NCBI GenBank assembly: GCA_964035575.1
Contig: OZ037835.1
Location: forward strand, 2,232,001-2,269,412
Direction: 5' to 3'
Length of the DNA: 37,412 bases
Source: Rhynchopus sp. YZ270_cl-10
Taxonomy: Eukaryota
The notes below the pieces were generated by a model. It had not been told where the DNA came from. It did not search any database and was given only the letters and a program-made list of their open reading frames with translations. Below, in pieces: positions 5,102 through 24,374 of the stretch. The translations under genes and the position numbers were made by a program. Within the stretch, counting starts at the first letter, position 1. Each line of letters opens with the position of its first letter.

Positions 5102-5309
5102 CGAGAAGTGAGCAACCATATGTGGCAGGCTGGTGTGATGTGTTACGGGCTGGTGTATCGAAAATGTTCCATTGTGTTATTCTTAGGGAATCTTGTTGGT
5201 GAGGTGAGTTTTTGGCATTTGAGTTCATGTTGCTAAAGTAGAGTTTATATTTATTGCGTGTGTGATAATTTATGAAAGTTTAGCAGTATTATCGTGTATG
5301 TGGCCGACT

Positions 5310-5560
5310 GCAGGTACCCTAAAGACTTCAGCTGGCCAAGTAACCTTTTGTATACTACGATTCATGGAGTTTACTACCACCATACGTCGAGGCAATTGCT
5401 CCGATGAAGCCACTACAGTAAACCATTTGAAAAAATATTTTTGGCCATTTTGGGATTTATGGACAGAAATTTCGACAAATCTGTCCATAAATTACGTTCT
5501 GTCCATAAAAGCCAGGATCCTGACCAAAAATCACTGTATTGAAAATACAGGGATTTTTGC
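5310..5560. repeat. Hairpin-bearing ~270-bp module, copy A
   Basis: Similar to 5650-5920 and 21560-21832; contains atttatggacaga...tctgtccataaat and the terminal hairpin with one mismatch. Confidence 0.9.
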
Positions 5561-5649
5561 CTGCATAATGCCCTTCCACACACCTGCATAACCTATTGCA
5601 GTATGTGTATTGATGTTTGCAGGTAACCTGTGGTTTGTGAGTTTTTATG

Positions 5650-5920
5650 CATTCCCTGTATAGGGCCTATAAGGGTACCCACAACCTCAGAGCCAAGTAA
5701 ATTAATGTCTACTACGTATTTTTGGGCCTACTACCACCATACTTCGACGCAATTACGCCGCTGAAGCCACTACAGTAAGCCATTTGAAAAAGTATTTTTG
5801 GCCATTTTGGGATTTATGGACAGAAATGTCGACAAATCTGTCCATAAATTACGTTCTGTCCATAAGAGCCAAAATCCCGACCAAAAATCCCTGTATTGAA
5901 AATACAGGGATTTTTGGCTG
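5650..5920. repeat. Hairpin-bearing ~270-bp module, copy B
   Basis: 13-bp inverted repeat at 5812-5824/5837-5849, a third arm at 5855-5865, and a perfect 17-bp stem ccaaaaatccctgtatt-gaa-aatacagggatttttgg at 5881-5917. Confidence 0.92.
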
Positions 5921-6229
5921 CATAAGGCAAAACCCCTAGCATGTACCTGACTGGTAAAATTCTCTCTATTGAGGGACATATTGTGGCTACTCTGTAGGGG
6001 TGTGTGTGGGTGTGTGTGGGGGGTTTGAGGAAAAATTGAAATATAAAATGTTCCTTTGTTTTTGTTCTCTCACATTTCATGCTTCATTTGTACTGTGTTC
6101 AAAACTAATAGGTATCCCCAAACCCACAATCCCAAAAAATTCCCACCAAACCCAACCCGCAAAAATATCCCCGATTGTTACCACTTCTTTCATTTTTCTT
6201 TTTTTATAATTATTACTTTTTTTGTATGT

Positions 6230-9200
6230 TCACAACTCCCAATCAACTTGATATAAAATCTCATTGGGAAATCCCCTATGCAATTGTTCCAAACCATTTT
6301 TGTGTGTTTCCAATTCACGTTCAGGAGACCCTGTACCAATATTAAAATGATCAGGGTTTGAAGTATGTAATAAAATAATCCTGTCTTTTGCAGGAATATT
6401 AGCAAGAACTTGTTCAGTAGACAAGTTGTTCCCCAAAAAGTGAAAAGATGAGGGCTTGTTATCTTGGTTCATTTTGACAATAGTTATTAGAACACATTTT
6501 AAGAGACTCACCAAGGCAAACTCAATCTGTTCTGCATAGTCTGATGTTGCGTACGTCCCATCAATCCTGCCAGTTATCCTGTTAATAAGGGCGTTGTAGG
6601 TGCCTACAATCGAGGATACGGTGTTAGCGTTTTCAGGTACAATAAGAGGATGATGTTTTATTGTAGTACTGTTCTGCACAACAAACAATTCCAATTCTCT
6701 TCTGAGTTGATTCCCTTGTCCTATCCTCTTTGTAATAGACTGGTCTACAGCATGGTAAAAGCAAGTACCATCCCCCAAAACCCTGGTAATGGAGAGCTTC
6801 GGCTTTTGTGCTGTTGTTGCTTCTGCTGATGTAGGGTTATTCTTCTTCCGCTTCTTAGGAGACTTATCTTCTGGGTCTCTCTTCCTCTTTTTGGCTACAT
6901 AGACAAGATCTTCAGCATCTTCAAACTGAATGCTCTCGCACTGCATTGGCATGGGGTCCCAGAATTTATGGTCGTCAGATGGTGGAGGCATCTTTGCTTG
7001 TTTGTGGGTCTGTTCAGAGTACTCTTTGTCAGTCATGACGTGGTAACTCTGTAGCATGGCCTCTTCTGCTTCAGTCAGCTGCATAAAGATGCCCTCGAGT
7101 CCACGGTCAGCAACAGATTTCAGCATGTCCTTGTACACAGGGTTTGACACTCTGTATGGCTCCACAATAGTTCTGGTTGATTTGGTCCATTTCTTCAGAG
7201 GCACTGCAACCTTGACATGCTCTGCCTTTGGGCATCTGCTCAGAGCAACGTACAACTGCCCATGTGCAAAGCACTGAGACTCTGTGAGGTCGAGTCCAAC
7301 CCTATCGAGGGTCTGTCCCTGAGACTTGTTAATTGTAGAGGCGAATGACAGTGCGACAGGAAACTGGACACGCTGCATGCTGAAACCAGCCTTCTTCTCG
7401 TCAGGAGTGTTCTTAACTCTGGGGATGTTCACTTCCGTTCCAACTCTTTTAGGGTCACCCACAATGATCCCCTGAATGTTGAGCTGTGTCACGCCAGTCA
7501 CAATAAACCTCGTTCCATTGCAGAGACCCTTTGGTGGGTTGAGGTTTTTAAGCAACATTAGAGGAGCACCAACCTTGACAGTGATGCAGTGGTCAGGTAT
7601 GCCTGTCTGCTGGTACGCATTCATCACGTCTGAGTCAATGGCAGATTCTCCCTCAACAGACTCCTCTGTGCATGTGTCCTTCCCTGTAAGCTGGAACTCA
7701 TGGAGTACTTCTTTTTGTTTCCCACACAGCCTCTTGAGACAAATGTTGTTCATTGCCTTCTGAGCTTTGTTAGTTGGTGCAAGGATCATGCCATTTCCAA
7801 CTACACCTTCTCCAATCAGAGGGAAGACGTGGGTGATTAAATCATCAGGTACAACATAATCCCCACAATCCTTTCGGTAGAGGTTTCTTGGGAGAGATAT
7901 GGAACCGTCTCTATCGTTGCACGACCCATCGCCAATGGTTCCCAGGTAGGTAGCCCAATTTTTGTCATCCTTCTGCCTCATTATCTCGACAAGGGACAGC
8001 ATAGTCATATTTTGGAATAGAGGAGAAGTATGCAGACAGTTTTTAAGCGTGGCACTCTTGTCTCCCTCAGTGACAGGAAGAATCTGCTTGAAGTCGCCAC
8101 CAAGAACCACAGTGATTCCACCAAACCACATGGCCTTTTCAGTAACCTTTCTGCAGGTTCTGTCGAGAAGTTCTATGTGGCCCCTGTTTGCCATCACCAC
8201 CTCATCAAAGACAATGAGATCCGTTGCGCGGATGAGATCTTCAATTTCTTTTGTCAGTTTGCAGACAGAGTGGTGGTCATCAGGGTACAGATCAAGAGGA
8301 AACTTGAATCTGTTGTGGGATGTTCTTCCTCCAGGCAGGAGCATTGCTGCAATACCAGAGCTTGCGACTGCAAGGGCAATGTTAGGACGATGTGTGTCAT
8401 CTTGCGCCGGAACCCCTCTGTGGCTTCTGCACCAACTGAGCATGGCCTGGTAGGTAAACGTTTTTCCAGTCCCTGCAGCACCCTGAAGCAGAAACATCTC
8501 GCCTTTGCCCTGAGTCACAGAGAGTTGAACACGCTGAACTGCTTCCATCTGTTTTGTATTGAGCTTAGGTTGAATCTTCTCCCACTCTTGCCACTGCTTT
8601 TCCATGTTGTAGATTTCATCCTTCATAACCCAAGACACTCCATCGTTCGCACTCCTCACAGCAGCTGTTGGTGTTGGGAGTCCAAAGACTTCTAGCTTTA
8701 CATCCGACCCACAAATGTTTCTCAACACATTCTGAATATCCAACAGTGCTTCATTTTCCTCCTGCTCAGATACCGTAGCCTCCCCATCCGGTGCAGTCTC
8801 TCCCTGCTTCAGAGGACGCTTGCACAGCTCCACCTTGTATGTCTTCCAGAGTTCTTTCATGTCATTAGGAGGAATAGCAAAGGAGTTGAGTAGAACAGCA
8901 AGGGTAAACCTGAGGCATCTTCCTGACACAGTGGTTTTGACTGCATCCACAAGTGTAAGCTTCACAAGTTCACCATCCTGAAGGAGCCCCATTTCATTTG
9001 CTGCATCCGTAAAGGACTCGCACTTTTTCCCTTCTACAGTCATCAGGTCATCAAAGCTAGTGGGTCCTTTTCTCACCATGAGGATAGTGCGCAGAGCCTG
9101 AAGCTCCTTATCCAAAACAGGGGTTCTGTACAGGCGACCAATAGCCAGAAGATGGGACTTTGCAGCTCGTGATCTGTCCGTTGTGACAAGCGACTCAGTC

Positions 9201-12200
9201 CTGGGGCAGTACACGTAGCTTTTCCTCAGGGTCCACTCTGCTTTATCTCTGGAGAAGGCAAAGTATTCAGGAACAGTGATGTAGTTCAGGGTTTGTATTC
9301 CCTGGTACTTGGAAGACGGGTCACGTTTTGCGTCACTATTTGCAGCAAACCAGGCTGTGAGTGTTGTGTCCGTGGCCTTGTCAAGAGCCTCTGCCTCCTT
9401 GCCAGGAAAGTAGTACAGCCTTTGCTGGCCTGCAAGATGAACATCAAGTCTGGTGACACTTGGGTCAATGTATCTCATCTTTGTTCCGAGAAGGTATCCA
9501 ATGGCCTCAAGTGACCCAATGTGTATGCCTGTCAGATAGCTCATGCACTCATCCGTTTTGTTTTTTTCCCCGTCTTTGGCTGAAACTGACACATTAGCAT
9601 ACTCATCGTCCTTGAACAGATACTTGAAGAGGTATCTGATGACAACTGGAGATCCAACAGCCTCTATGTTGAAGTGGCTCATGAACTGGGTGAGAAGAAC
9701 TATGTTGTAGGAAACAACATAGCGGTTGTCTCTACAGCTGGGGTGTACCTTCCCTTCTGTGGCCAGCTTTCTTGCCCGCTCTTGGTCTTTTTCCGCAACA
9801 GCGCTTGTTCTCCCATTTTCAGGCCGCATACCATAGCTGTACATTCCTGTCTCAGTTGCCAGGGTATCTTCCCGAAAGTTTTTAGGGTAGTGCTGTTTGC
9901 ACCGTGCGTTGCCGTCTGGGCCGGGCACCTTGCATCGTGCACTGGGCACAGTATCACACTTGGTGTGCATCATCTGCTCCGACACCAAGTTGTATAGCTC
10001 TTCTTGCGTTTCGGGATCAGGCAACTGGCAGGACACCGCCATGTCAAAAATGGTTGCAGACTTCGGCTTGTGCTCCTTGGAAACCCACAGAAGAAGATGC
10101 AAGTGGGGGAGTCCGCGCTTCTGGTACTCCACCACACGAACCATTGCCTGGTACGTCCCGAGTGCATTCTCTTTCAACTTTTTCTCAAGTTGATCCATCT
10201 TGAGGTTGAAGACTCGGTGCACAAGATCAGACCTGTCACAGGGTCTTTCTCCTGGACGCAGCTCCCTGAGAATCTCTGGCCAGTGTGGGTTGGCTGTCAT
10301 GGTCAGGAAATAATCGGGGCAGCCAAGACGGGCCTTCAACGCAAGTGAATCGTTGAGGTCTTGAATCCTAGCTCTCTTCCCACGCGGGTAGCTGGCATAG
10401 AGGGTGGTGGTGGCTGTTGTAGTGTCATTGGTCGCATCGTGTGTGGTGACGCGACGGTTTTCCACCACTGTAGTAACACGGGACTCTTCAAGGAATTCTT
10501 TTGTTGCATACTTCTTTACTATCTGCTGGCTGTGGTAAGATATGCGTTGCGTAATGGCACGGATGCCAAGCTGAAGGAAGAAGTATTCGGTCAGCTTGCG
10601 CCCTATCAGTGCAGGCCCTGGTTCCCCATCTGGGTTCTTCTCGGTCGCCCGTGAAAACAGGTGGAAGCAGCCATACTCCTGTGCTGACACACCACTGTAG
10701 GGGTTTGGCGTTGCTTCATCTTTTCGACTGTGTCTCCAACCTGTACTGTCCTTTGGACACACATGGATAAGGGGAAAACACAGTGGCTCAAACCTCGCAT
10801 CAAAATCCGATATCTTTCTGCTGTATCTATCGCTTCCTTCACCTTCACCTTCAGCTTCTCCCTGCATAATAACGCTGTACTGCTGCCGGCCCCAACCTGC
10901 TGCGTATTTGTGATCATCTGTTCCAGTACTGACAGTATATACAGCCCGCAATTCATCTTCTGCAGCGGCGTTTGCGTACTCCCGTCCCGTCTTCTCAGGT
11001 CCTCGCAGATCGTCAAAGTTAATGGCCACATGTGTGTTCTCTTCGGCACTGTCCATCAGAACTGAGGCTCTCCTGAACATCCTGACATAGCAATTGTCTT
11101 TCAGCATGGTCATGATGTCCTGGTAGAGAGTAGTGTCGCGTTCCAGTTCTGGGATCCTCTCCATCTCTTGCAAGCCTTTCAAGGCGCGGTCCTGCTCGTT
11201 GTATCCACCAACAAACCAGGTTTGGTTTCTTGTTTCCGCATCGTCAGACAGGCCCATAATTTTCTTCACCCCTTTTCCTTTTACAACTATGTTGTGTATT
11301 CCGCGTGTGTTGGAAAACAACTTGTGGGGGGTATGCAATGCCTTGGCCATCTGATGATAAGAATTCAGGCGGTATGAATTCTTGAGAAACATTTGATCCG
11401 AGAACAATCTTTTGTGGTTGTCGTTCTCAAATTCAATTGGCCCAGGGATGTCTCTCGCCTTGATCCTGTTGCAGCAAATTCCATATCTCCCTTCTCCTCG
11501 GACCTCACCAGAGAAGAGCTTTGCACCACATTTTCTACAGACAGAATTCATCCCCCCAATGTCAGCATAAGACACGCATCCATTTGTGTAGTCTTCAAGC
11601 TTCATTGCAGCTGAGTGGAGGCTTGGGTCAAGACTTCTCCCACACATTTCCGAAGTAGAAACCCTATTTTCGAATTCTGCAACTAATGCTTGACAGATGG
11701 GTCCGTTTGTTCTCAGCGTATCGGACCTCTTCTCGAGCCATCTTTCGCAGATGTCATTTGCACAGTTCTCTATTGATCCAAGAATGTACGGAGAAAGTCC
11801 TTGCATGCCATGACTTTTTTCTTCCTCAAGCAACTTGATTCTCTTCTTGTCGGAGTATGTGAGAGAATCAAGAGAACGGTTCCAGCGAGACTCTAACTCA
11901 GGATGTACAGCAAAGAGATCCCTGAACGAAGATTTATTAGTTATTGTTCTAATAGAAGCAATAACGTACGCAAGACGGCATTTTGCAACGTGCGTGATGT
12001 GCATGTACCTGAAGAGACAATGTGGATCATGTATTTTTGTTTTGTTGTATCTCTGTAAACACCACTCACAGACATCGTATTGAGTGTGTGGTGCAGAGCT
12101 TTCGTACTGGCTGCAGAAAAAATTTATATCTTCTAACTGCATTTGTGATGTTTCAGCCGAGAGACGCAAAGATTCACGCATGTCCGACAGGTATCTAGAC

Positions 12201-12289
12201 CATCCATTCGATGGGGGCTCTCTGGCGCAGTCATCCAAATCTCCATCTATCATATGACCATAGAGATCTTGATATCCCCCTTCCAACAT
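6230..12289 (-). CDS. Helitron Rep/helicase (HUH endonuclease + PIF1-family helicase) with C-terminal OTU-like cysteine protease, 2019 aa, intronless
   Basis: N-terminal CRKCGAKLFSGE...CC zinc motif. Rep motifs PDYFLTMTANPHWPE, VEYQKRGLPHLHLLLW and YLFKYLFK. Helicase motifs GAAGTGKT, VASSGIAA, LIVFDE, GGDFKQILPV, GLCNGTR, QFPVALSFASTINKSQGQT and HGQLYVALSR. OTU-like GDGTCFYHA...DHFN. Confidence 0.97.
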   Translation of the reverse strand: MLEGGYQDLYGHMIDGDLDDCAREPPSNGWSRYLSDMRESLRLSAETSQMQLEDINFFCSQYESSAPHTQYDVCEWCLQRYNKTKIHDPHCLFRYMHITHVAKCRLAYVIASIRTITNKSSFRDLFAVHPELESRWNRSLDSLTYSDKKRIKLLEEEKSHGMQGLSPYILGSIENCANDICERWLEKRSDTLRTNGPICQALVAEFENRVSTSEMCGRSLDPSLHSAAMKLEDYTNGCVSYADIGGMNSVCRKCGAKLFSGEVRGEGRYGICCNRIKARDIPGPIEFENDNHKRLFSDQMFLKNSYRLNSYHQMAKALHTPHKLFSNTRGIHNIVVKGKGVKKIMGLSDDAETRNQTWFVGGYNEQDRALKGLQEMERIPELERDTTLYQDIMTMLKDNCYVRMFRRASVLMDSAEENTHVAINFDDLRGPEKTGREYANAAAEDELRAVYTVSTGTDDHKYAAGWGRQQYSVIMQGEAEGEGEGSDRYSRKISDFDARFEPLCFPLIHVCPKDSTGWRHSRKDEATPNPYSGVSAQEYGCFHLFSRATEKNPDGEPGPALIGRKLTEYFFLQLGIRAITQRISYHSQQIVKKYATKEFLEESRVTTVVENRRVTTHDATNDTTTATTTLYASYPRGKRARIQDLNDSLALKARLGCPDYFLTMTANPHWPEILRELRPGERPCDRSDLVHRVFNLKMDQLEKKLKENALGTYQAMVRVVEYQKRGLPHLHLLLWVSKEHKPKSATIFDMAVSCQLPDPETQEELYNLVSEQMMHTKCDTVPSARCKVPGPDGNARCKQHYPKNFREDTLATETGMYSYGMRPENGRTSAVAEKDQERARKLATEGKVHPSCRDNRYVVSYNIVLLTQFMSHFNIEAVGSPVVIRYLFKYLFKDDEYANVSVSAKDGEKNKTDECMSYLTGIHIGSLEAIGYLLGTKMRYIDPSVTRLDVHLAGQQRLYYFPGKEAEALDKATDTTLTAWFAANSDAKRDPSSKYQGIQTLNYITVPEYFAFSRDKAEWTLRKSYVYCPRTESLVTTDRSRAAKSHLLAIGRLYRTPVLDKELQALRTILMVRKGPTSFDDLMTVEGKKCESFTDAANEMGLLQDGELVKLTLVDAVKTTVSGRCLRFTLAVLLNSFAIPPNDMKELWKTYKVELCKRPLKQGETAPDGEATVSEQEENEALLDIQNVLRNICGSDVKLEVFGLPTPTAAVRSANDGVSWVMKDEIYNMEKQWQEWEKIQPKLNTKQMEAVQRVQLSVTQGKGEMFLLQGAAGTGKTFTYQAMLSWCRSHRGVPAQDDTHRPNIALAVASSGIAAMLLPGGRTSHNRFKFPLDLYPDDHHSVCKLTKEIEDLIRATDLIVFDEVVMANRGHIELLDRTCRKVTEKAMWFGGITVVLGGDFKQILPVTEGDKSATLKNCLHTSPLFQNMTMLSLVEIMRQKDDKNWATYLGTIGDGSCNDRDGSISLPRNLYRKDCGDYVVPDDLITHVFPLIGEGVVGNGMILAPTNKAQKAMNNICLKRLCGKQKEVLHEFQLTGKDTCTEESVEGESAIDSDVMNAYQQTGIPDHCITVKVGAPLMLLKNLNPPKGLCNGTRFIVTGVTQLNIQGIIVGDPKRVGTEVNIPRVKNTPDEKKAGFSMQRVQFPVALSFASTINKSQGQTLDRVGLDLTESQCFAHGQLYVALSRCPKAEHVKVAVPLKKWTKSTRTIVEPYRVSNPVYKDMLKSVADRGLEGIFMQLTEAEEAMLQSYHVMTDKEYSEQTHKQAKMPPPSDDHKFWDPMPMQCESIQFEDAEDLVYVAKKRKRDPEDKSPKKRKKNNPTSAEATTAQKPKLSITRVLGDGTCFYHAVDQSITKRIGQGNQLRRELELFVVQNSTTIKHHPLIVPENANTVSSIVGTYNALINRITGRIDGTYATSDYAEQIEFALVSLLKCVLITIVKMNQDNKPSSFHFLGNNLSTEQVLANIPAKDRIILLHTSNPDHFNIGTGSPERELETHKNGLEQLHRGFPNEILYQVDWEL

Positions 12290-12607
12290 AGTTATGGTGT
12301 GTTATGTTTTTCTGTTTGTAATGACTGATGATGGATAAAAATGTTCTCAGAATTATTGGAAAAATAGGACATTCCTTTTTTGTTGTTGTATTATGTGATT
12401 TGATATTCTGTGTCTGACAAAATATACAAATATATTGGAAGAGTAGGAAAAATTCGGAAAACAAATAAATAACAAACAAAAAGTAACTGAGACAAAAAAA
12501 CCCGAAAACCCGCAAGCCCACAAAGACATATCCCCACTTATCGCTATTTTGTATTTTGTTTTCTTTTTTTATCCCTTATGTTAATGTTCACAACTCTATC
12601 ACACAAA

Positions 12608-13084
12608 TCATTGCATCAATAGACCTGTCACAGGCTCCCCCTTGAATAAGTATTTAAACAAATACTTAACAACAAGGACCCCGCGCACTTCCTCATTGTT
12701 TCTGTGGCGCCGATATTTCAGGAGAAGATTGTATTGAACCACCCACCTGTCGTTCATCAGATACTGACTGAAAGCTTTGTAGAGGTTTGGGTGTGCTAAT
12801 GGTCCCGGGAGTTGTACAATGTGATCCACATTTAAAGGGTTCTTCGGTGATGTTCTGTTGTCTTTCCAAAGAATTGCGTGAGCATGAGGCAGACCCCTCT
12901 TCTGGTACTCCATCACCACCACTATTGCAATGTGATCCCCAAGAACATTTTTTTCTCTGATATAATTTACAAGCTCCTTCACCTTGAGGTAGAAGATGCG
13001 GTGCACCAGATCCGGACGGTCAATAGCTGTCTCCCCTTCTAGCAGATTAGACTGAATCTCATACCACATTGGGTTGAACGTCAT
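12608..13084 (-). CDS. Stand-alone miniature Helitron Rep (HUH core only), 158 aa; may be a pseudogene
   Basis: MTFNPMWYEI, DRPDLVHRIF, EYQKRGLPHAHAILW and KYLFKYLFK are all in one frame from ATG to TGA. Confidence 0.8.
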   Translation of the reverse strand: MTFNPMWYEIQSNLLEGETAIDRPDLVHRIFYLKVKELVNYIREKNVLGDHIAIVVVMEYQKRGLPHAHAILWKDNRTSPKNPLNVDHIVQLPGPLAHPNLYKAFSQYLMNDRWVVQYNLLLKYRRHRNNEEVRGVLVVKYLFKYLFKGEPVTGLLMQ

Positions 13085-13357
13085 AGTTTGTTTGTGTGTT
13101 ATTCTTCCTTCTGCTGATAAATAAAAATGTACTTTGTTATTTCAGAAAAAAAAATTTTTTTCTATTTTTTTATTGTATCTGATATTTTGTGTCTGAAAAA
13201 ATATACAAATAAAACGGAAAAATTAAAAACAGAAGACAATGCTCGAGCGACACCTTTCTCTTTTATGGTGTCATAAAACGGGAGGGAAAAAGTAAAGATT
13301 GTTTGTTGTTTGTTGTTTGCTTCCACACCGCTTCTGTTTCAGATGAAAGTTTTTTTT

Positions 13358-13410
13358 AAGGCTGTCCTTACAAGCGTATGCCAAAACGCTCGCCTCATGG
13401 GTGTGGACTT
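13358..13410 (-). ncRNA. 53-nt conserved structured motif, copy 1 (copy 2 at 19748-19800, + strand)
   Basis: 46/53 identical to the other copy in inverted orientation, with compensatory changes in the central stem. Function unknown. Confidence 0.5.
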
Positions 13411-13545
13411 TTTTTTATAAAATATAAATTGAGTAGGGGAAAAAAAGCGGGGGAATGCGCAGAAGCACTATTTTTTACGGGGATCATTTTGTCAAATACT
13501 ACAACTACTAAAAAAATTTACTGTAAAAAATAATGATAAAAATTC

Positions 13546-14362
13546 CTAAAAATATTCTTCATCATCATCGTCATCATCTTCTGGAAGTGGGATGGGGGTG
13601 GTGACCTGGGGTGCGGTAACCTGGGGTGTGGTAACCTGGGGGGTGGTCACCAGGGGGCTTTTTTTCTTGTAATTCCTCCTGGGTTTTGGAGATTTTTCCT
13701 CGTGCACTTTGACGTGGTTATTAAGTGCAGATAAGGTTTCGCAAACCTTCTTGCACGTTTCACAAACCCATACTCCTCTCCTCGCTGGAGTACGAGTACG
13801 AGTTGGGGGGGCCTGAGGGGCCTCCGGTGTTGTGGGGGTCTCAAGTGTGGGCGTCTCAAGTGTGGGGGTCTCAGGTGTTATAGCCTCCTGAGACATCCTC
13901 GAATTGCGCTGTGATTATTATTTGTATCAGTTGAATAAAACCAAATAGTCATTATACCTTTGGTGTATCAACCCTCCTCCTCTTGTTTTGGTGGTTAACG
14001 ATGTGTTCAATCGCACGTTCATGCTGTGTTAAGAAGAATTTAAAAGTAATAACTGTAATATTACATACCAGTGATGTGTAGAAGCTGTGGGCTGAACGGA
14101 TCATGTTGTGAGCTTCTGTGAGTTGCCTGCACATTTCTTTAGTTTTCTCCATCTGGATATGTAGATCCGTGATCAGACCCGCAAGACTATCATCAACCGG
14201 CTCATTAAGCACATTGTTTCTGATAACGTCATCCGGGAGCTCATCATCCGGCTGTGAATTAGGCCCTTCTTCAGTTGGAGTAGGAAGGAGCATCGGGGCT
14301 TCCGCAAGGAGATTGGTGGACTGCAAATCATCACTCCACGGTGTCGGTTTCTTGGGGTCCAT
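13546..14362 (-). CDS. C2H2 zinc-finger protein, ~240 aa; exons 14362-14069, 14023-13958, 13908-13546
   Basis: Two predicted phase-0 GT-AG introns (14068-14024, 45 nt; 13957-13909, 49 nt). The second joins the two ORFs in frame; the first is in frame with no stop, so it is less certain. Features: coiled-coil-like segment, NKRRR basic patch, CETCKKVCETLSALNNHVKVH finger, TP repeats, acidic tail. Confidence 0.75.
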
Positions 14363-14644
14363 GTTGTTGTTTTTGTTTGTGTCGTAGGATTTTCTGGGGA
14401 GGGGAATGAATAAGAGAAATATATTAAGTAGGACCTACCAAAAAAATGGTATCTCCTGGGCTACAGACCACAAATCTAATTCATCTCCATCCATCTAATG
14501 CCTGAATTAAATTTGGTTAAAGGGTAAGGTGGCATTCCCTCCTACATACATCCCACACCGCAGGGAAACACCAATACATATACAACTACCCAGTCAACTC
14601 GTAAACCTGTGTAGTCAATTTTGCTGTTTTTACAGTGTTTTCTA

Positions 14645-14835
14645 TTGGTGAGTGAGTTTGTAGGAGTGCCGTCACCATAGGAATAGTAATCTGAACATAT
14701 ATTAGCAATATTTTGTTGTTGTTGAGTTTGCGGGTTTGCAGAATATACTGTGTATACTGTGTATACTGTGTTTTCTGTGTATACTGTGTATACTGTGTAT
14801 ACTGTGTATACTGTAGTTTTTTAGCAATATTATAT
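14645..14835 (-). repeat. Inverted, diverged copy of the 177-bp satellite unit in the strand-switch region
   Basis: tttgtaggagtgccgtcaccataggaat...aacatatattagcaatatttt is the reverse complement of the satellite core, followed by (atactgtgt)n. Confidence 0.88.
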
Positions 14836-15053
14836 TTACTATTACGGGTTTGCTATTGTATGGAAATATTATTGGGTGTGTCCAGGGGTAAACACTCAGC
14901 AGAGTAAGTGTATGTAAGCACACTCACAGAACAGACTGGCAAAGTGTATCTCTTTTTACCTCACACTCCCCTCTTGTTTTTGTAAACCACCCAGGCACCC
15001 TTCATCCTCCATACCCAAACACCACAGCCTAACACACATTTTTTGAACACAAC

Positions 15054-15722
15054 ATGAACACACTATTAGAAGGCAAAGTGATAGAAGCAAGAGACCCTGG
15101 AAACCGTGCCCAGCTTGTTGCATTCCATTTTTCAGAAACATGTGAAACGAAAGGACGAACAGCATATCTTCAAGGAACCCTTGGAAATAGGCCACTGAAT
15201 GTGTGCATACTATTTCACAGAGGGAAATGTAAGTCACAGAAGACGTGCCGTCAACTACATGTCAGTCCAGATGCTGTGGACAGACTTCGCGATGAAATGG
15301 CGGGCCAGTGCTGCGCACTTCATTCCGGAAAATGGGTCAGCAAAAAATGCGTCATGTTGAAGGGAAAGGACAATATAGCATTGCTCTCTGTGAGCAATTT
15401 CAGCAGTACAAGAGGTTTGGAGGAGCTTTTGCGCCGGGGGGACAAGATTATTGTACAAAAGAACAGGATTTGTGGGCTGAACAAATTGAAGAGATGCAAA
15501 TGGGGGGAGCGTTGTATCAACATCCATATATGCCGAGAACTTGACCTGGAGAACCTTGCATCATTCTGCCCTTACAGTACTTGCTCCAGCAGTGAATCCT
15601 ATGCAGACACCTGGCAGGAATGCAGCACATCGAGCAGCAAATCTAGTGTTGATACCCTATCTCCCTCAGCATCTGAAATAACCTTCATGGCACTGAACAG
15701 GTTTGCTGCACACTGGGTTTAA
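15054..15722 (+). CDS. Tandem CCCH zinc-finger protein, euglenozoan ZC3H-like putative RNA-binding protein, 222 aa
   Basis: Two C-x7-C-x5-C-x3-H motifs (CILFHRGKCKSQKTCRQLH, CGLNKLKRCKWGERCINIH), each preceded by a T[KR]G motif, with an intervening CCxxH and a Ser-rich tail. Confidence 0.85.
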   Translation: MNTLLEGKVIEARDPGNRAQLVAFHFSETCETKGRTAYLQGTLGNRPLNVCILFHRGKCKSQKTCRQLHVSPDAVDRLRDEMAGQCCALHSGKWVSKKCVMLKGKDNIALLSVSNFSSTRGLEELLRRGDKIIVQKNRICGLNKLKRCKWGERCINIHICRELDLENLASFCPYSTCSSSESYADTWQECSTSSSKSSVDTLSPSASEITFMALNRFAAHWV

Positions 15723-15917
15723 TAAATAAAAACCAAGACAAAAGAAAACAAAAATAAAGAACACTCCAAATTAAATAATATTGCAACCCATCCCAATTAT
15801 TACTTATCCCTCCATCTGTTTTTCTTGTATTCTTTAAGTTTTTATTGTCTTACTCAACGGACTAACACACATCACAGGCCACTACTACAAATATACTGTC
15901 AACACAACAAGAACACA

Positions 15918-17150
15918 ATGAGCTCAGTAGATTCTGTTCAGCAGTATTCTGTCATATCAACAGCAGGAGGCAGCATAGGAAACACAGACTCAGACTTTGA
16001 ACCCAGCGGTTGCTTCAACATCACTGACATTGCAGGACCCACCAATCCAGTGGAGCGAGGATACGCATCAGTTCTGCTGAATGGCTTACAACTTATACGT
16101 TGCAACCTCCCGCTCCCAGGGAAAGAAGAAACACTCACAGTGTCAGCTAATGAAGACATAAACATCACTGGGGAAAAGGGCGGGCTTGGCCTTGACGCTC
16201 TCTTTATCACAACTCATGATCCGCTTCCTGGGAGTGCATGGAATGCAACCCTGAAATGTACCTGTGAAGGCCGTGAGGACTTTGAAGTTGATCTTGGGAA
16301 CCTCGTGCAATCTCAAGATGCATCACACTCTGGCCACTACATTGCATACCACCCAACTACATTCACAGTGAAGGTTCAACACATGCCAATTGACAATGTG
16401 AAGCAAGGGTCCGCAGAGAGGCAACTTGTTAAAGAGGTCAGAGCTATTTTGGAAAACCCACGGCTGAATGTGTGCAGAGGTTCTCTGGGGTCTATTGTGC
16501 TGAGCAACAAAGCGAAGGAGAGTCCACTCTACGACAACGTTGTGGGGAAATGCTACGGTGGTGCCTGGCAGGAATTTCTCAGGGCCCATCCTGAGGACTT
16601 CTCTCTGTTCCACTATTCTGATGAGGATATTGTTGAAAATTGTCTTGCTCCACAGATAAAAAAGTCTGATGCACGTGTCTGCCTCTTTGGAACACCGCTC
16701 TCTTCAGTGCGCGAAATAGACAAGTCTAGAAGCAAAGTCCAACGTGAAGATGAGGAAAATCTTAAAAAGGCCCTGCTAGGAATGCTCTCTGAAGGCCCCA
16801 TGTCCCAGAAGGAGCTGTTGCAGAAGTTGAATGGATTTGAAGTGTTCACAAACTCTCTATTCCCAAGCCACTCTCTTCTCATGCGGTTTCTCTCCAGACA
16901 CGATAAAACATTTGTGTGGACAGCAGGGCCCGACCAGCCTACGCGTATTGGCCTGGCTTCTTCTGATAGAATTCTCTGCCACGAAAGTCAGAACTATATA
17001 AAACCTAGCACAAGTAGCACATCTCAGAAGCACAGCCTACCTCGTTTTCTTAATCAGCACATAGGGTTCAACATGAAGCCAACTTCTCAACAGCAGCCAG
17101 TGTACCGACATGATCCATACAGCACCGTGCCATTCTACTATTCCCAATAA
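15918..17150 (+). CDS. Hypothetical protein, ~410 aa, with two OST-HTH/LOTUS-like winged-helix segments and a C-terminal YRHDPY motif
   Basis: First ATG of the long ORF is at 15918. YGGAWQEFLRAHPEDFSLF and LLMRFLSRHDKTFVW resemble LOTUS-type repeats by eye. Ends VYRHDPYSTVPFYYSQ. Confidence 0.7.
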   Translation: MSSVDSVQQYSVISTAGGSIGNTDSDFEPSGCFNITDIAGPTNPVERGYASVLLNGLQLIRCNLPLPGKEETLTVSANEDINITGEKGGLGLDALFITTHDPLPGSAWNATLKCTCEGREDFEVDLGNLVQSQDASHSGHYIAYHPTTFTVKVQHMPIDNVKQGSAERQLVKEVRAILENPRLNVCRGSLGSIVLSNKAKESPLYDNVVGKCYGGAWQEFLRAHPEDFSLFHYSDEDIVENCLAPQIKKSDARVCLFGTPLSSVREIDKSRSKVQREDEENLKKALLGMLSEGPMSQKELLQKLNGFEVFTNSLFPSHSLLMRFLSRHDKTFVWTAGPDQPTRIGLASSDRILCHESQNYIKPSTSSTSQKHSLPRFLNQHIGFNMKPTSQQQPVYRHDPYSTVPFYYSQ

Positions 17151-17696
17151 TATGTAACTACACCAGTTCCGCAAACCCAGATGACCAGTCACCCATATGT
17201 GAACCCCTCTCCCTACCTACCCTCACATAAAAAAAAGAAGAAAAAAAAGAAACACTAATACAACCAAGTTTTCAAAGAAAGAAATCAAATAAAGAAGGAT
17301 GCAAAGAGAGAAAAAAAGAAATAAAGAGCTTGCACTGTTTCACAAAAATGAAGGAAAAAAGAAAAAAAGTGATATCTCCCCCACTCCCTCTGCTTAGACA
17401 TAGTTTTTTACCTTCCCCCCAGCCAAGAAACAACAACACATCACACCACAGCTCACCAGAGAACCACAACTTCATGTGTACAAGGGCAGTATACATTCAC
17501 ACTCTCTCGGTTTCTAGGCTTCTAGGGAAAGGTTCTAGGCACTCCCGTGGTGTTACTCACCCACAAACCCACGCAAACCCAAAAGGCATGAGGCAATGTC
17601 CTCAGAATCCTCCACTGACCCCCCCAGTCCTCTCATTTGCAAGTCTCCACACCTCTCACCACAGGAACACCTAAGACAACACACGGGGGGGTTGTA

Positions 17697-17756
17697 ATTT
17701 ATGGACAGATTTTACGGATATTCTGTCCATAAATTTGGTTCTGTCCATAAAAGCTC
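17697..17756. repeat. Partial copy C of the hairpin module (inverted-repeat triplet only), upstream of actin
   Basis: atttatggacaga-ttttacggatat-tctgtccataaat-ttggt-tctgtccataaaagc. Confidence 0.85.
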
Positions 17757-17997
17757 AATTTTTGCATTCGGAAAATTTTCCAGGATTTTGCCTTTTTTTT
17801 GGTGCACATGGTGTTTTCTCTTGGTTTTCTGGTTTCTCGCTGGGTTTGGAGGTCCCTGCTGTGTGTGTGGGTTGTGGCCCTGACCGTGAACCACCCACCC
17901 TACGTGGCCCACCCCCCAAACCCCCCCACCACAAGTATATACCCACAGACTCAAACCACAGAACAACACATACCCTTAAACACGTACAAACTTCAAC

Positions 17998-19171
17998 ATG
18001 GATGATGACCAGCAAGCAATCGTCTGTGACAATGGGTCTGGGATGGTGAAGGCAGGTTTCGCAGGAGACGATGCCCCGAGGTCCGTGTTTCCGTCCATTG
18101 TTGGAAGGCCAAAGACTGCTGCAGCAATGATGGGAACGGCAAAGAAGGAAGCCTATATTGGTGACGACGCACAGTCCAAGCGTGGTATTCTGCTGATCAA
18201 GTATCCGATTGAGCATGGTATCATCACAAACTGGGATGACATGGAAAAGATCTGGCACCACACCTTCTTCAACGAGCTCCGTGTTGCACCTGAGGATCAC
18301 CCTGTGCTTCTCACAGAAGCGCCCATGAACCCAAAGGCCAACCGTGAAAAGATGACACAGATCATGTTTGAGACGTTCAACAGCCCTGCAATGTACGTTG
18401 GGATCCAGGCGGTGCTGTCCCTGTACTCGTCTGGACGCACAACAGGAATTGTTCTTGACTCAGGAGATGGTGTGACCCACACAGTTCCCATCTACGAGGG
18501 GTACTCTCTGCCACACGCCGTGCTTCGTATTGACATGGCTGGAAGAGACATGACAGACTGGATGATTAAGCTTCTGACAGAACGTGGTAACAGCTTTGTC
18601 ACCTCTGCAGAGCGCGAGATTGTGCGTGATGTGAAAGAAAAGCTCGCCTACGTTGCCTTGGTATGCATATTTTTTACAGGAAAAAGAAAACCCAAAAACC
18701 CACCAGGACTTTGACGAGGAGATGTCCCTGGCCTCGTCATCATCGTCGTTGGAAAAGGACTACGAGCTTCCCGATGGACAGGTGATCACAGTGGGCTCAG
18801 AGAGATTCCGTTGCCCTGAGGCACTCTTCAAGCCACAGTTCATTGGGCTTGAGGCAAATGGCATCCATGAGACGGTGTACAACTCCATCATGAAGTGTGA
18901 CATCGATGTGCGTAAGGACTTGTACGCCAACATTGTTCTCTCAGGAGGAACTACCATGTACGAGGGGCTTGCAGACCGTCTTTCCAAGGAAGTCACAAAC
19001 CTGGCACCAAACAGCATGAAGATCAAGGTTGTTGCCCCACCGGAGAGAAAGTACTCTGTGTGGATTGGAGGGTCTATTCTCTCTTCCCTTTCCACCTTTG
19101 CGTCCATGTGGGTAAAGAAGGAGGAGTATGATGAGAGTGGCCCAGGGATTGTTCATAAGAAGTGCTTCTAG
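17998..19171 (+). CDS. ACT: Actin, 375 aa; exons 17998-18660 and 18707-19171
   Basis: Clear actin sequence ([19 protein letters not shown]...[15 protein letters not shown]...IVHKKCF). A 46-nt gtatgc...caccag intron (18661-18706) restores YVAL|DFDEEM. Confidence 0.98.
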
Positions 19172-19471
19172 TCATAAAAAACGACAAATGAATACAAAAA
19201 ATTTAAAATAAAAAATGCAAAATAAAAATCAAGACAAAACAAAAAAAACAAATACAAACTTTCGGGGTGTTGGGGATAGGGTTATTGCGAGAACTTGCCT
19301 GTAGTGTGGATTTTTTTTATTTGATTGTACTGTATATTCCGTCGTATGCGGCAAAAATTACAAATGATACAAACAAAAAAGCAAAATTTAATATATTTTT
19401 AACACAAATAAAACCAAAATAATAAAAGGAGACATGAATACAAAAGAAAATAAGACAGCAAACAAAAAAAA

Positions 19472-19892
19472 TGACGTCGTCCTGGGCTGGACGTTAAATT
19501 GCATCCGGGGGCCCTTTTGTGGCACTCCTCCTGAAACTCTATGAAGGTCTGACCTGAGGGTAAAAGGTGCTGGGTATGCTACCCTGGGTGCTGAAGGCAG
19601 GCACACAACATGTGTGGAGGGACCTGCAGAGCCCTAGCCAGTGAAGCCAAGGAGGCCCCCCTAGGAAACTAGGGAACGGATTGGAAGAGACCTCGCCGGT
19701 AGCCGGGAACCCTCCCTGGGCTAGTACAATGATGAAACTTCAATCTTAAGTCCACACCCATGTGGCGGCCGCTTTGGCATGCGTCTGTAAGGACAGCCTT
19801 GACTGATACTTTCTGTATTAGCACACGATTGCCTCCCTGAAGGCTGCGTAGCTACCTGAGTACAAAAAAAAAAAAAAAAAAAAAAAAAAAAA
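19472..19892 (+). ncRNA. GC-rich structured non-coding island ending in an A-tract (structured RNA or short retroposon); includes a C/D-box-like segment at 19724-19863
   Basis: Hairpins ccctag-GAAA-ctaggg (19659-19674), cacaca-aca-tgtgtg and gggta-tgc-taccc. ATGATGA at 19729 and CTGA at 19856 are closed by gtac/gtac. About 29 A follow at 19864-19892. Confidence 0.45.
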
Positions 19893-20199
19893 CACCAAAG
19901 CAGAAACAAAAGCAAAAAACAAAACCAAAAAGAGAAAAAATAAAAAAGGAACATACTATTTTCCCTGTTAAGCTTGAAACACCCATAAACCCCAACACAC
20001 ACTACACAGAAACAATAATACCTCTGTCCAACACATACTAACAATAACAGAAACTAATCTACCTCTTTCCAAGCCTCCATAGCATTCATCAATACCCTCT
20101 GCTACCTTCTCTCACAAACCTTTGCGCATAATATATAACATGCACAAAAGACAAGAAAACCTATACGGTTATTATAGAATATTTTCGGCAGTCTATATG

Positions 20200-20505
20200 T
20201 TGGAAACAACACTTTCTATGATGGCACTCCTACCAACCATAAGAGGCATGAGTATCAGGTATACATAGTATACACTGTATACACACCATACACTGTGTAT
20301 ACTTGTATACACAGCAAACACAGTACTGATCATGGCCTATATGTTCCAAACTACATGTTCTATGGTGACGGCACTCCTACAAAATCACTGACCAACCATA
20401 AGAGGCATTAGTTGCAGGTTTACACACTGTACACAGTATACACAGTATACACAGTGATGGTCATAGCCTATATGTTCTATGATGAGGACACTCCTACAAA
20501 CTCCA
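20200..20505 (+). repeat. Two degenerate copies of the 177-bp satellite unit upstream of Arf
   Basis: ctatggtgacggcactcctacaaa, ctgaccaaccataagaggca and acacagtat 9-mers. Confidence 0.8.
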
Positions 20506-20605
20506 ACCTCACTGAACTGAGCCCATACCAACCCCCTCCGCTCACTCCACCCACTCCACCCACATATTACTACAGTAACACAAAAGTGACACATATATTT
20601 TCACC

Positions 20606-21151
20606 ATGGGTAACATTACCTCTGCACTGACAACTCTCTTTGCAGGGAAGAAGAATGTGAAGATGCTGATGGTGGGGCTCGATGCTTCTGGCAAGACCAC
20701 TGTGCTGTACAAGCTGAAGTTAGGGGATTTGATCACATCCATACCGACGATCGGGTTCAATGTGGAGACAGTGGAGTACAAGAACCTCAAGTTCACTATG
20801 TGGGACGTTGGTGGCCAGGACAAGCTGAGACCGCTGTGGCGCCACTACTTTGAGGGGACTGATGGCATTATATTTGTTGTTGACAGCAACGACAGGGACA
20901 GAATTTCTCTTGCACGTGATGAGCTGCACAAGCTGGCAACAGATGATGCCCTCCGTGATGCAACACTTCTTGTGCTTGCAAACAAACAGGATCTTCCAAA
21001 GGCGATGACCCCAGCTGAAATGACTGACAAACTTGGGCTGCACTCTCTAAGGCTCCGGGAGTGGTACATCCAGGGAAGTTGCGCTGCAACTGGTGAAGGT
21101 TTGTATGAAGGACTTGACTGGCTGTCATCCTCCATGAAGTCAAGAAACTAG
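20606..21151 (+). CDS. ARF: ADP-ribosylation factor family small GTPase (Arf1-like), 181 aa, intronless
   Basis: Gly2 myristoylation site, [42 protein letters not shown]. Confidence 0.97.
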
Positions 21152-21559
21152 GGTTTTTTAAAGGATATAGGGAGGAAATACAAAAACTGAGACTGGGGAG
21201 GGACGACAAGACACATCTAGCCTGTCATGTCAATGTTTTCTTCAAATACAGAGATATGAAAACAAATGCTCCAACAAAAACAAAAAAGGAATGTTCAATC
21301 AAACCCAATGCACCCGTATTTTTGCTTTATCACTTGTCTAAAATCTATTCCTTTATTCCTTCCATAATCTTTTGCCAACATACCCACACGCCAACATCAG
21401 CTTCTACTTTCCAACATCATACTACAACATGCAAATATACAAGGTGAGGAATTCTGACCGCCCTGCTTAATAGAGACTGAGATACAGTAGTGTATCACAC
21501 ATGTTGGACTGGTGCACAAGGGTTCTGGGGGAACCCCACGTACTATGAGTTTACACAGT

Positions 21560-21832
21560 AATTCCCTGTGTATGACCCTGTAAGGGTACCCACAGACCTC
21601 AGTAGGCCAAGTAAATTGATGTCTACTATGTATTTTTGGGCCCACGACCACCATACTTTGACGCCATTGCTCCGATGAAGCCACTACAGTAAGCCATTTG
21701 AAAACATGTTTTTGGCCATTTTGGGATTTATGGACAGAAATGTTGACAAATCTGTCCATAAATTCCGTTCTGTCCATAAAAGCCAGGATCCTGGCCAAAA
21801 ATCCCTGTATTGAAAATACAGGGATTTTTGGC
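21560..21832. repeat. Hairpin-bearing ~270-bp module, copy D (same orientation as A and B)
   Basis: Colinear with 5650-5920; 18-bp stem at 21794-21832; palindrome gccaggatcctggc at 21782-21795. Confidence 0.92.
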
Positions 21833-21839
21833 TTTGCTC

Positions 21840-24130
21840 CACACAGTGTACACAGAGCACTACACAGTGTACACAGTATACACAGGACAAAATATTGCTA
21901 ATATATGTTAAGATTATTATTCCTATGGTGACGACACTCCTACAAACCCACTGACCAACCATAAAAGGCAAGGGTTGCTGGTACACACAGTATACACAGT
22001 GTAAACAGTGTACACAGTGTACACAGTGTAAACACTGTACACAGTGTACACAGTGTAAACACAGTACACAGTATACACAGCATACACAGGACAAAATATT
22101 GCTAATATATGTTAAGATTATTATTCCTATGGTGACGGCACTCCTACAAACCCACTGACCAACCATAAAAGGCAAGGGTTGCTGGTATACACAGTGTAAA
22201 CAGTGTACACAGTGTACACAGTGTACACACTGTACCCAGTATACACAGTTTTCACAGGACAAAATATTGCTAATATATGTTAAGATTATTATTCCTATGG
22301 TGACGGCACTCCTACAAACCCACTGACCAACCATAAAAGGCAAGGGTTGCTGGTACACACAGTGTAAACAGTGTAAACAGTGTACACAGTGTACACAGTG
22401 TAAACACTGTACACAGTATACACAGTATACACAGGACAAAATATTGCTAATATATGTTAAGATTATTATTCCTATGGTGACGGCACTCCTACAAACCCAC
22501 TGACCAACCATAAAAGGCAAGGGTTGCTGGTACACACAGTGTAAACAGTGTAAACAGTGTACACAGTGTGCACAGTGTAAACACTGTACACAGTATACAC
22601 AGTATACACAGGACAAAATATTGTTAATATATGTTAAGATTATTATTCCTATGGTGACGACACTCCCACAAACCCACTGACCAACCATAAAAGGCAAGGG
22701 TTGCTGGAAAACACAGTGTAAACAGTGTAAACAGTGTACACAGTGTACACACTATAAACACTGTACACAGTGTAGACAGTATACACAGGACAAAATATTG
22801 CTAATATATGTTAAGATTATTATTCCTATGGTGACGACACTCCTACAAACCCACTGACCAACCATAAAAGGCAAGGGTTGCTGGAAAACACAGTGTAAAC
22901 AGTGTAAACAGTGTACACAGTGTACACACTATAAACACTGTACACAGTGTAGACAGTATACACAGGACAAAATATTGCTAATATATGTTAAGATTATTAT
23001 TCCTATGGTGACGACACTCCTACAAACCCACTGACCAACCATAAAAGGCAAGGGTTGCTGGAAAACACAGTGTAAACAGTGTAAACAGTGTACACAGTGT
23101 ACACACTATAAACACTGTACACAGTATACACAGTATACACAGGACAAAATATTGCTAATATATGTTAAGATTAATATTCCTATGGTGACGGCACTCCTAC
23201 AAATCCACTGACCAAGCATAAAAGGCAAGGGTTGCTGGAAAACACAGTGTAAACAGTGTAAACAGTGTACACAGTGTACACACTATAAACACTGTACACA
23301 GTATACACAGTATACACAGGACAAAATATTGCTAATATATGTTAAGATTAATATTCCTATGGTGACGGCACTCCTACAAATCCACTGACCAAGCATAAAA
23401 GGCAAGGGTTGCTGGAAAACACAGTGTAAACAGTGTAAACAGTGTACACAGTGTACACAGTATACACAGGACAAAATATTGCTAATATATGTTAAGATTA
23501 TTATTCCTATGGTGACGACACTCCTACAAACCCACTGACCAACCATAAAAGGCAAGGGTTGCTGGTACACACAGTGTAAACAGTGTAAACAGTGTACACA
23601 GTGTACATAGTGTACACAGTGTACACAGTGTACACACTATAAACACTGTACACAGTATACACAGTTTTCACAGGACAAAATATTGCTAATATATGTTAAG
23701 ATTATTATTCCTATGGTGACGGCACTCCTACAAACCCACTGACCAACCATAAAAGGCAAGGGTTGCTGGAAAACACAGTGTAAACAGTGTAAACAGTGTA
23801 CACAGTGTACACAGTGTAAATGCTGTACACAGTATACACAGTATACACAGGACAAAATATTGCTAATATATGTTAAGATTATTATTCCTATGGTGACGGC
23901 ACTCCTACAAACCCACTGACCAACCATAAAAGGCAAGGGTTGCTGGTACACACAGTATACACAGTGTACACAGTGTATACAGTGTACACAGTGTAAACAC
24001 TGTACACAGTATACACAGCATACACAGGACAAAATATTGCTAATATATGTTAAGATTATTATTCCTATGGTGACGGCACTCCTACAAACCCACTGACCAA
24101 CCATAATAGCTATGGGTTGCAGGTTTTCAC
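21840..24130 (+). repeat. Tandem satellite, 13 units, modal period 177 bp, with internal 9-bp subrepeats
   Basis: ggacaaaatattg recurs at 21885, 22089, 22257, 22434, 22611, 22788, 22965, 23142, 23319, 23469, 23673, 23850 and 24027. Periods are 150, 168, 177 or 204. Confidence 0.97.
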
Positions 24131-24133
24131 AGT

Positions 24134-24330
24134 GACCCGCACGACCCCCACGACCCACATAACCCCCACGAGCCCCATGACCCCCACAACCCCCACGACC
24201 CCCACGACCCCCACGACCCCCACGACCCCCACGACCCCCACGACCCCCACGACCCGCACGACCCCCCCAACCCCCACGACCCCCATGACCCCCACAACCC
24301 GCAAACCCCCACAACCCCCATAACCCGCCA
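24134..24330 (+). repeat. (CCCCACGAC)n 9-bp minisatellite
   Basis: Read directly; about 20 imperfect units. Confidence 0.9.
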
Positions 24331-24374
24331 CCTTGCCATCCATTTGACCTGAAACCCGGTAATATATATAGTGT

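Follow-up and report, generated by a model that had tools for sequence, protein, structure and literature searches.

The question raised by this locus of the diplonemid (marine protist) Rhynchopus sp. YZ270_cl-10 is whether the actin, Arf GTPase and two further genes that stand beside a RepHel transposase are cargo of a transposon or belong to a host locus invaded by repeats. The window, i.e., the whole stretch of DNA analysed, comprises 37,412 nucleotides of contig OZ037835.1 (positions 2,232,001 to 2,269,412). The block in question occupies positions 5101–24373 of the window (19,273 bp) and fills the interval between two consecutive (AAACCCGC)n arrays, the two array junctions being the edges which the first-pass annotation, made from the sequence alone, had assigned to it. 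We consider it probable (about 0.75) that the block is a Helitron-like element that is mobilised by RepHel, targets arrays, belongs to a RepHel-OTU clade of its own and carries full-length host genes as cargo; it was likely active recently.

The genes are split divergently, as had been described: genes of RepHel, mini-Rep, a C2H2 protein and, in addition to those described, a 136-aa protein are located on the minus strand, and genes of the CCCH-like protein, the 410-aa protein, actin and Arf on the plus strand. The claim that all open reading frames (ORFs) are uninterrupted held for RepHel, mini-Rep, C2H2, CCCH-like, 410-aa and Arf, but not for actin, which consists of two exons separated by a 46-nt GT-AG intron (18661–18706). 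The coding part of the block contains the following features:

6230–12289, minus strand, RepHel transposase, 2019 aa, single ORF (ORF, Pfam, motifs)
12608–13084, minus strand, mini-Rep, 158 aa, HUH and YLFKY kept, without helicase (Pfam, motifs)
13546–13896, minus strand, C2H2 protein, 116 aa, single finger (Pfam E 0.0009, below cut-off)
13952–14362, minus strand, 136-aa ORF of no known family, absent from the first-pass annotation (ORF, Pfam)
14363–15053, divergent strand switch with an inverted satellite-unit copy at 14645–14827 (ORF map, self-BLAST)
15054–15722, plus strand, CCCH-like protein, 222 aa (Torus, E 0.007, the sole Pfam match)
15918–17150, plus strand, 410-aa protein with C-terminal YRHDPY (predicted model)
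17998–19171, plus strand, actin, 375 aa when spliced, exons 17998–18660 and 18707–19171 (splice reconstruction)
20606–21151, plus strand, Arf1-like GTPase, 181 aa, with Gly2, P-loop, DVGGQ and NKQD intact (Pfam E 1e-73)

The transposase unites a HUH Rep and a PIF1 helicase in one protein, the combination characteristic of Helitron-like elements. Pfam matches to PIF1 (E 5.6e-49) and Helitron_like_N (E 4.6e-32) were found, the Rep motifs lie at residues 660, 720 (HUH) and 886 (YxxxY), the helicase occupies residues 1242–1705, and all Rep and helicase motifs are intact. Helitron_like_N without DUF6570 is the marker of the class HLE1 (PMC11417382); neither DUF6570 nor AP endonuclease, a marker of HLE2, was among the 13 Pfam matches. 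The C-terminal OTU-like domain (approximately residues 1835–1985), likewise named in the first-pass annotation, matches Pfam weakly (E 0.016, below the cut-off), but the motifs GDGTCF and DHFN, containing Cys and His, are present, and the tail is a predicted deubiquitinase.

The closest named relatives of RepHel are the RepHels of plant, fungal and animal Helitrons, with about 30% identity. In a quick tree of 31 rows, picked from 120 listed relatives, plus P0301, the protein fell into a separate clade of 10 rows (SH-aLRT 100), which has a long stem and does not include the Helitrons of plants, fungi or animals, and the OTU-type Cys motif was found in seven of the nine other rows of this clade. 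Proteins P0168 and P0301 represent a low-copy sister RepHel family, 87% identical to the RepHel core, the C-terminal domain of which has neither an OTU motif nor a Pfam match, while in P0171 the OTU motif is N-terminal and a USP domain is C-terminal; the tail seems to have been swapped among members of the clade. A second abundant family of the clade is represented by P0172, a RepHel of 40% identity with 70 cluster members, found on other long ENA contigs.

Further copies were counted in a protein collection, in clusters at 90% identity, all members of which are from ENA. The clusters comprise 29 members for RepHel (at 97%), 17 and 3 for the CCCH-like protein (96–97%), 20 for the 410-aa protein and 12 variants for Arf; seven sequences of element-type actin exon 1 account for 24 contig occurrences, and Arf for 20. 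Every plus-strand gene is multi-copy, with protein identity of 95–100% and the same contig set as RepHel; the single-copy plus-strand genes of a host locus invaded by repeats were thus not found. The listed members fall on 28 distinct ENA contigs, told apart by size, 11 of which are 1.27–1.79 Mb long, so that with 29 RepHel variants the family is dispersed and multi-copy, as expected of Helitron-like elements, contig size serving here as a proxy. A plus-strand gene is present on nine of the 13 RepHel contigs, and two or more cargo genes on 16 of the 24 cargo contigs, including contigs of 15.7, 42 and 59 kb. The lists are partial (15 of 29 members for RepHel, 15 of 20 for the 410-aa protein and 18 of 20 for the CCCH-like protein) and give for each sequence its longest contig; therefore, the absence of cargo from a contig is weak evidence. 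Two different full-length copies share one contig size in the case of the 410-aa protein (171,985) and of Arf (1,619,506), and accordingly some copies lie within a single assembly. The search for more copies proposed in the first-pass annotation thus yielded near-identical proteins on 28 contigs and no other copy as DNA. In viral_contigs, none of the 25 pattern matches was confirmed as a relative of the block, and the 80 loci retained from metagenome_contigs are distant Helitrons (26–45% in the best segment), none of this family.

Read data are represented by contigs of four runs from four studies over positions 5110–17990; one of the runs is perhaps the source of the window, and contig depth is not copy number. 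No RNA data set was among the listed holders of the sequence, which has no bearing on expression. The depth over RepHel was similar to that over the genes of the CCCH-like and 410-aa proteins in three runs, so that the depth comparison suggested earlier placed RepHel and two cargo genes at a similar level. In run X5, RepHel contigs had a depth of 7.8–10.3, the 410-aa contig 9.0 and the left end 7.5, and in run X1 the values for RepHel and cargo were 3227 and 4316; RepHel contigs diverged by 12–15% had a depth of only 60–108 in X1. Many variants of intermediate frequency were found inside single runs, one of which contains 2038 variant contigs. The bin of the left hairpin module had approximately 2–3 times the depth of RepHel, and that of the strand switch far exceeded the remaining bins in all four runs. 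Assembly chimerism is ruled out, since 27–30 of the 30 bins are covered by the four runs and many contigs carry the genes together.

The genes of the element differ in the extent of their divergence. The mean protein difference, weighted by contig, is 0.0007 for actin exon 1 (24 occurrences) and 0 for exon 2 (128 residues, 27 occurrences), while Arf differs by 0.012, the 410-aa protein by 0.024 and a set of eight long RepHels by 0.023; segregating sites number 1 of 349, 13 of 181 and 45 of 409 for actin, Arf and the 410-aa protein, respectively. Since actin is nearly invariant while other genes of the element differ by 1–2%, purifying selection on actin is suggested as the simplest reading. 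For RepHel, 13 of 21 differences within the main family are synonymous (p 4e-4 against 25%), as counted among the 40 best-supported of 834 rows after exclusion of six rows taken as a diverged subfamily (five non-synonymous, one synonymous). Among the 15 RepHel copies listed, 10 keep all seven motifs and five are partial; this mix of intact and partial copies suggests a living family.

Actin provides the clearest indication of the origin of the cargo. Exon 1 is 98% identical to a protein of Diplonema papillatum, and 357 of 360 residues match the protein of a Rhynchopus euleeides transcript. Other gene calls for diplonemid-type actins end or run into an intron at the same residue, which makes the position of the intron ancestral; since the element's actin keeps this diplonemid intron, the cargo was likely captured as genomic DNA. 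The resident-type actins P0050-52 have an extra Ser at position 2, a different N-terminus and a different intron. Read-throughs of the actin intron vary among the copies and are wholly unlike those of P0050-52. Viral origin of the cargo is ruled out by the diplonemid intron and diplonemid homologues, and among the nine ORFs of the block searched against Pfam, no capsid, family B polymerase, packaging ATPase or integrase of a polinton or endogenous DNA virus was detected. As the cargo is host DNA with an intron of the host, and matches to capsid or polymerase families were absent, the likeness to the cargo of large DNA viruses, to which the first-pass annotation had drawn attention, adds little.

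The ends of the block and its surroundings are formed by the following features:

4981–5100, plus strand, (AAACCCGC)n array of the left flank, the likely target (TRF, regex)
5101–5145, terminal segment of the left end, with about 70% similarity to the post-array ends of neighbouring units
5313–5928, hairpin module of about 270 bp, two tandem copies with 13-bp stems (self-BLAST, hairpin scan)
17696–17754, partial hairpin module upstream of actin (self-BLAST, hairpin scan)
20193–20456, degenerate satellite-unit copies upstream of Arf (self-BLAST)
21561–21833, third hairpin module, direct repeat of the left pair (87–90%), with an 18-bp stem at 21794–21832 (self-BLAST)
21841–24134, 177-bp satellite, about 12 copies (TRF, self-BLAST)
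24134–24373, 9-bp minisatellite (TRF) together with the terminal segment of the right end, the latter with about 65% similarity to the pre-array ends of neighbours
24374–24557, plus strand, (AAACCCGC)n array of the right flank (TRF, regex)
24558–35869, three RepHel-less units of 3.4–3.8 kb between further arrays, with common end motifs (self-BLAST, regex)

One motif is common to five junctions leading from array into unit, a second to five junctions leading from unit into array, and the block has diverged forms of both. Its left end is identical to those of two neighbours at 33 of 47 and 32 of 47 positions (0 of 5000 controls each) and to that of a third at 27 of 48 (11 of 5000), and the right end (about 40 bases) at 29–30 of 46 (0–5 of 5000 random controls). 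The distance-to-end values of X5 imply a contig of approximately 5101–5367 at the depth of 7.5, similar to that of RepHel. Neighbouring units rejoin to an array that stays in phase, and a repeat target would hide the duplication of whole units. The RepHel-less neighbours are likely non-autonomous relatives of the block.

Canonical termini were not found on the block. In the sense of RepHel it starts with ACAC or CAC instead of the 5'-TC of HLE1, which is present at all five other pre-array junctions, and it ends with CTCG, with a fold of −2.7 kcal/mol, instead of CTRR and a hairpin; the neighbours end with CTAG or CTTG and have weak folds. The neighbouring units read TC...CTNG at a T-T site on the minus strand and have CTAG or TTAG ends in the plus-strand reading, which the block does not clearly share. 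Junctions within the array are T-T (minus) or C-A (plus), not the A-T target of HLE1. No terminal inverted repeats of the HLE2 type were detected at the termini among exact inverted matches of at least 11, the matches between the ends of the block being internal palindromic modules and two low-complexity matches. Judged by sequence, the block is Helitron-like by its enzyme but fits neither canonical HLE1 nor HLE2, since TC, a terminal hairpin and terminal inverted repeats are absent and the end is CTCG.

The left hairpin module contains a 17-bp stem with a 3-nt loop at 5881–5917; no match to the hairpin motif was found in viral_contigs. The repeat modules between the genes, which had been equated with those flanking the block, match its own inner ends (the hairpin module and the 177-bp satellite unit), but no self-BLAST match was found between the gene region and the outer flanks with the 349-bp satellite. 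These flanks (24558–35869 and 1–4980) are higher-order repeats with units of 2.6–3.8 kb containing the 349-bp satellite, separated by six (AAACCCGC)n arrays that all have the same polarity; the sixth is at least 1.5 kb long and reaches the end of the window. In the left flank, a perfect 12-bp G/C hairpin is present at 959–983 and 4447–4471 within a 216-bp repeat (94% identical). The arrays flanking the block are C-rich and of single polarity, the sequence being C-rich up to the right end of the window; no CCCTAA pair is present within the window, and no published diplonemid telomere motif was found in the literature searched. Rfam gave no match at the gathering score on 1–17990; on 19200–24400, 40 sub-threshold matches, nearly all of them miRNA models on the satellite, were taken as chance.

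Several observations weigh against a RepHel-mobilised, cargo-carrying element. The 5'-TC, the CTRR and a strong hairpin near either end, i.e., the canonical ends of HLE1, are missing; as the ends of the block are only 65–70% like those of the neighbours, and the motif of its left end is found within the flank repeats too, the end motif may be leftover target DNA. Four of the 13 RepHel contigs contain no plus-strand gene, and the probability of the overlap between RepHel and cargo contigs depends on the total number of contigs assumed (0.07 for 50, 2.6e-4 for 100, 6e-7 for 200). The other copies are known as proteins, the joint occurrence of which is read from shared contig size as a proxy, and among the contigs listed for 5110–17990 none spans the block. 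Depth covers the stretch from the left end to the 410-aa gene, and the synonymous tally draws on 40 of 834 rows. The invariance of actin could also result from gene conversion with resident actins or from late capture.

The missing Helitron ends would also be explained if the block were passed between satellite-rich, subtelomere-like regions through ectopic recombination or gene conversion, with RepHel as a passenger in a segmental duplication together with host genes; the flanks are indeed tandem higher-order repeats, 97–98% identical to each other. We regard such spread as unlikely: RepHel has a synonymous excess and its copies are mostly intact, array junctions delimit the unit, the end motifs of which recur in units with unrelated interiors, and the elevated depth of the hairpin module is expected for an element-specific part. 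Considerably less probable is an integrating rolling-circle episome, in which the hairpin repeats 5651–5919 and 21561–21833 would act as origin or recombination sites and release a circle of about 16 kb with RepHel and cargo. Direct repeats with 13- to 18-bp hairpins do enclose all the genes, and a 15,678-bp ENA contig with the 410-aa gene and actin agrees with such a circle; however, the spacing of the repeats is 15,910 or 16,272 bp, not 15,678, the joints listed for 5110–17990, a stretch without the right module, include none from the hairpin module, and the majority of copies are on long contigs. The contig itself (P0017, P0040, P0316) is close in size to the gene block and could be a circle or a haplotig.

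Least probable of all, and hardly credible, is that repeats invaded one host locus, the apparent copies of which would be alleles, haplotigs or one locus in several assemblies. It is favoured by the presence of the sequence in several samples, by a 2,213-bp Logan contig listed for homologues of the CCCH-like and of the 410-aa protein alike (P0322/P0327), and by one 1,409,674-bp contig listed for a 410-aa homologue and actins (P0326/P0055/P0060); because of these shared contigs, the order of some cargo genes may go back to ancestral synteny in the host. Synteny in relatives is, however, equally predicted by the capture of a host segment, and a single locus does not account for eleven chromosome-scale contigs differing in size, two copies on one contig, the 2038 variant contigs of one run, the equal depth of RepHel and cargo, or the separate resident-type actins with another N-terminus and intron. 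A cargo-carrying RepHel element, as inferred in the first-pass annotation, is supported by whole cargo genes recurring with RepHel, which would have moved the block.

Arf, claimed to be intact on the plus strand, is a single ORF with complete motifs. In the gap between actin and Arf (19474–19947), about 390 bp of GC-rich non-coding sequence is followed by an A-rich tail, which could be a retroposed insertion; the folding of 19474–19864 is no better than that of shuffles (z 0.10), with no Rfam match, and a 66-bp piece (19748–19813) matches 13345–13410 in inverted sense.

For the CCCH-like and 410-aa proteins, the named homologues among those looked up are from diplonemids only. The ORF of the former is intact, the support for its assignment to the CCCH family being the Torus match alone; its D. 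japonicum homologue is 42% identical. The description of the latter as LOTUS-like with an HDPY motif agrees with the predicted model (pLDDT 81.8), consisting of a beta-sandwich and two LOTUS-like winged helices, and with the YRHDPY found at the C-terminus. The top structural match is Egalitarian (Z 9.6, rmsd 11.9, 141 aligned), followed by the LOTUS domain of Marf1 (Z 8.9, 2.4, 68) and TDRD5 (Z 8.5, 2.6, 75); LOTUS entries make up four of the five top rows (Z 8.1–9.6), near other winged helices at Z 7–9.3. Foldseek gave partial weak matches, of which Hikeshi was the best, ESM Atlas gave no usable match, and WH_Egal matched five of 47 members of the family, the protein of the window not among them. 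Diplonemid homologues are 40–49% identical, and the seven printed retain HDPY or DPY; in a tree of 26 rows the element copies are placed among the diplonemid homologues on a long stem, without a well-supported sister. The YRHDPY resembles the FRHDPY peptide by which trypanosome MKT1 is bound, as reported in the available part of PMC3985637. Both proteins are predicted mRNA regulators, and functions of the 410-aa, CCCH and OTU parts that aid the element itself are a matter of speculation.

On the minus strand, mini-Rep and the C2H2 ORF were found intact as claimed, with the C2H2 match below the cut-off. Mini-Rep is 45% (663–778) and 48% (854–895) identical to RepHel, and the 116 nt upstream of it are 72% like the region upstream of RepHel. 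The exact sequence of the 136-aa ORF was not found in the protein collection. Depth falls over 13710–14569 in X1 and X5, and position 13319 is joined to 14362 in X8, so that the C2H2 and 136-aa ORFs are likely optional; mini-Rep and the C2H2/136-aa part seem to be present in only a subset of copies, the clusters of mini-Rep and C2H2 containing four members each at 90% identity. In the last RepHel-less unit, a spliced stand-alone OTU-like gene (32700–33989, plus strand), 38–47% identical to the OTU tail of RepHel, is likely cargo of a non-autonomous relative.

Among known systems, whole accessory genes are carried by the Starship cargo transposons of fungi. Starship elements use a tyrosine recombinase, whereas the block has a HUH-helicase and is far smaller. 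The closest structural parallel is provided by the telomere-inserting Helitrons of Paramecium aurelia, described in the available part of bioRxiv 10.1101/2025.11.06.686955 as residing in telomeric repeats and capturing satellites but no genes. In common with them, the block lies in a C-rich short repeat on both sides, of one polarity, and has internal satellites, many ORF-less derivatives with common ends and a transposase under purifying selection; unlike them, it carries four intact host genes, and its array is known only as C-rich and of one polarity, whereas insertion in Paramecium is telomeric. With HLE1, as defined in the available text of PMC11417382, it shares Helitron_like_N and PIF1 without a DUF6570 or endonuclease match, but not the 5'-TC, CTRR, terminal hairpin or A-T target; in the same text OTU is located upstream of RepHel and not in downstream fusion as in the block, and the captured domains that it names include neither actin nor Arf. 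The association with OTU, and a T-T target fitting the minus-strand reading of the neighbours, resemble HLE2 (Helentron/Helitron2), from which the block differs in the absence of a DUF6570 or endonuclease match and of short inverted repeats at the extreme ends. Large size (14–39 kb reported) and additional ORFs in autonomous copies are also known for maize Helitrons and HELPO1 of Pleurotus, according to the parts of PMC6431247 and PMC4289320 consulted, where most captures are described as fragments or as genes whose origin is unclear; the first-pass annotation had said the same of captured fragments, in agreement with the review (PMC6431247), in the available part of which full-length capture of host genes by Helitrons is called exceptionally rare. 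The cargo of the block, unlike these captures, is represented by recognisable housekeeping genes, one of them with an intron. Helitron-like ORFs are mentioned once, without description, in the D. papillatum genome paper, and no account of the block's element was found in open-licence literature.

By analogy with Helitron biology, RepHel would nick one array junction and peel one strand into a circle, which would be pasted into another (AAACCCGC)n array without target duplication, so that the unit in its entirety would be copied through rolling-circle transposition by the RepHel that it encodes. Diplonema genes form polycistronic clusters and are trans-spliced, as stated in the available part of PMC10161547. 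The strand switch at 14363–15053 is likely a transcription start region, from which two polycistronic transcripts would start and be cut into mRNAs by the spliced-leader machinery of the host. Captured genes would then need no promoter of their own, and we propose that such promoterless expression is the reason for the survival of entire genes in place of fragments. For actin, both expression and maintenance by purifying selection are likely, its copies probably being kept for dosage. A further-reaching proposal, which is tentative, is that a diplonemid Helitron clade targets (AAACCCGC)n, possibly the telomere repeat, as a divergent polycistronic unit, and that about 25 working actin copies together with mRNA-stabilising proteins sustain it as a selected gene-dosage vehicle.

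Full-length host gene capture, deemed exceptionally rare for Helitrons, appears to be represented in one family by four whole genes, among them an intron-bearing actin with hardly any variation in about 24 copies. The analysis defines a RepHel-OTU clade, present so far in unnamed records only, and points to a second instance in which Helitrons insert into an array of short repeats. It also makes it testable whether genomes with trans-splicing let transposons carry functional cargo, and whether selection on the cargo sustains the transposon.

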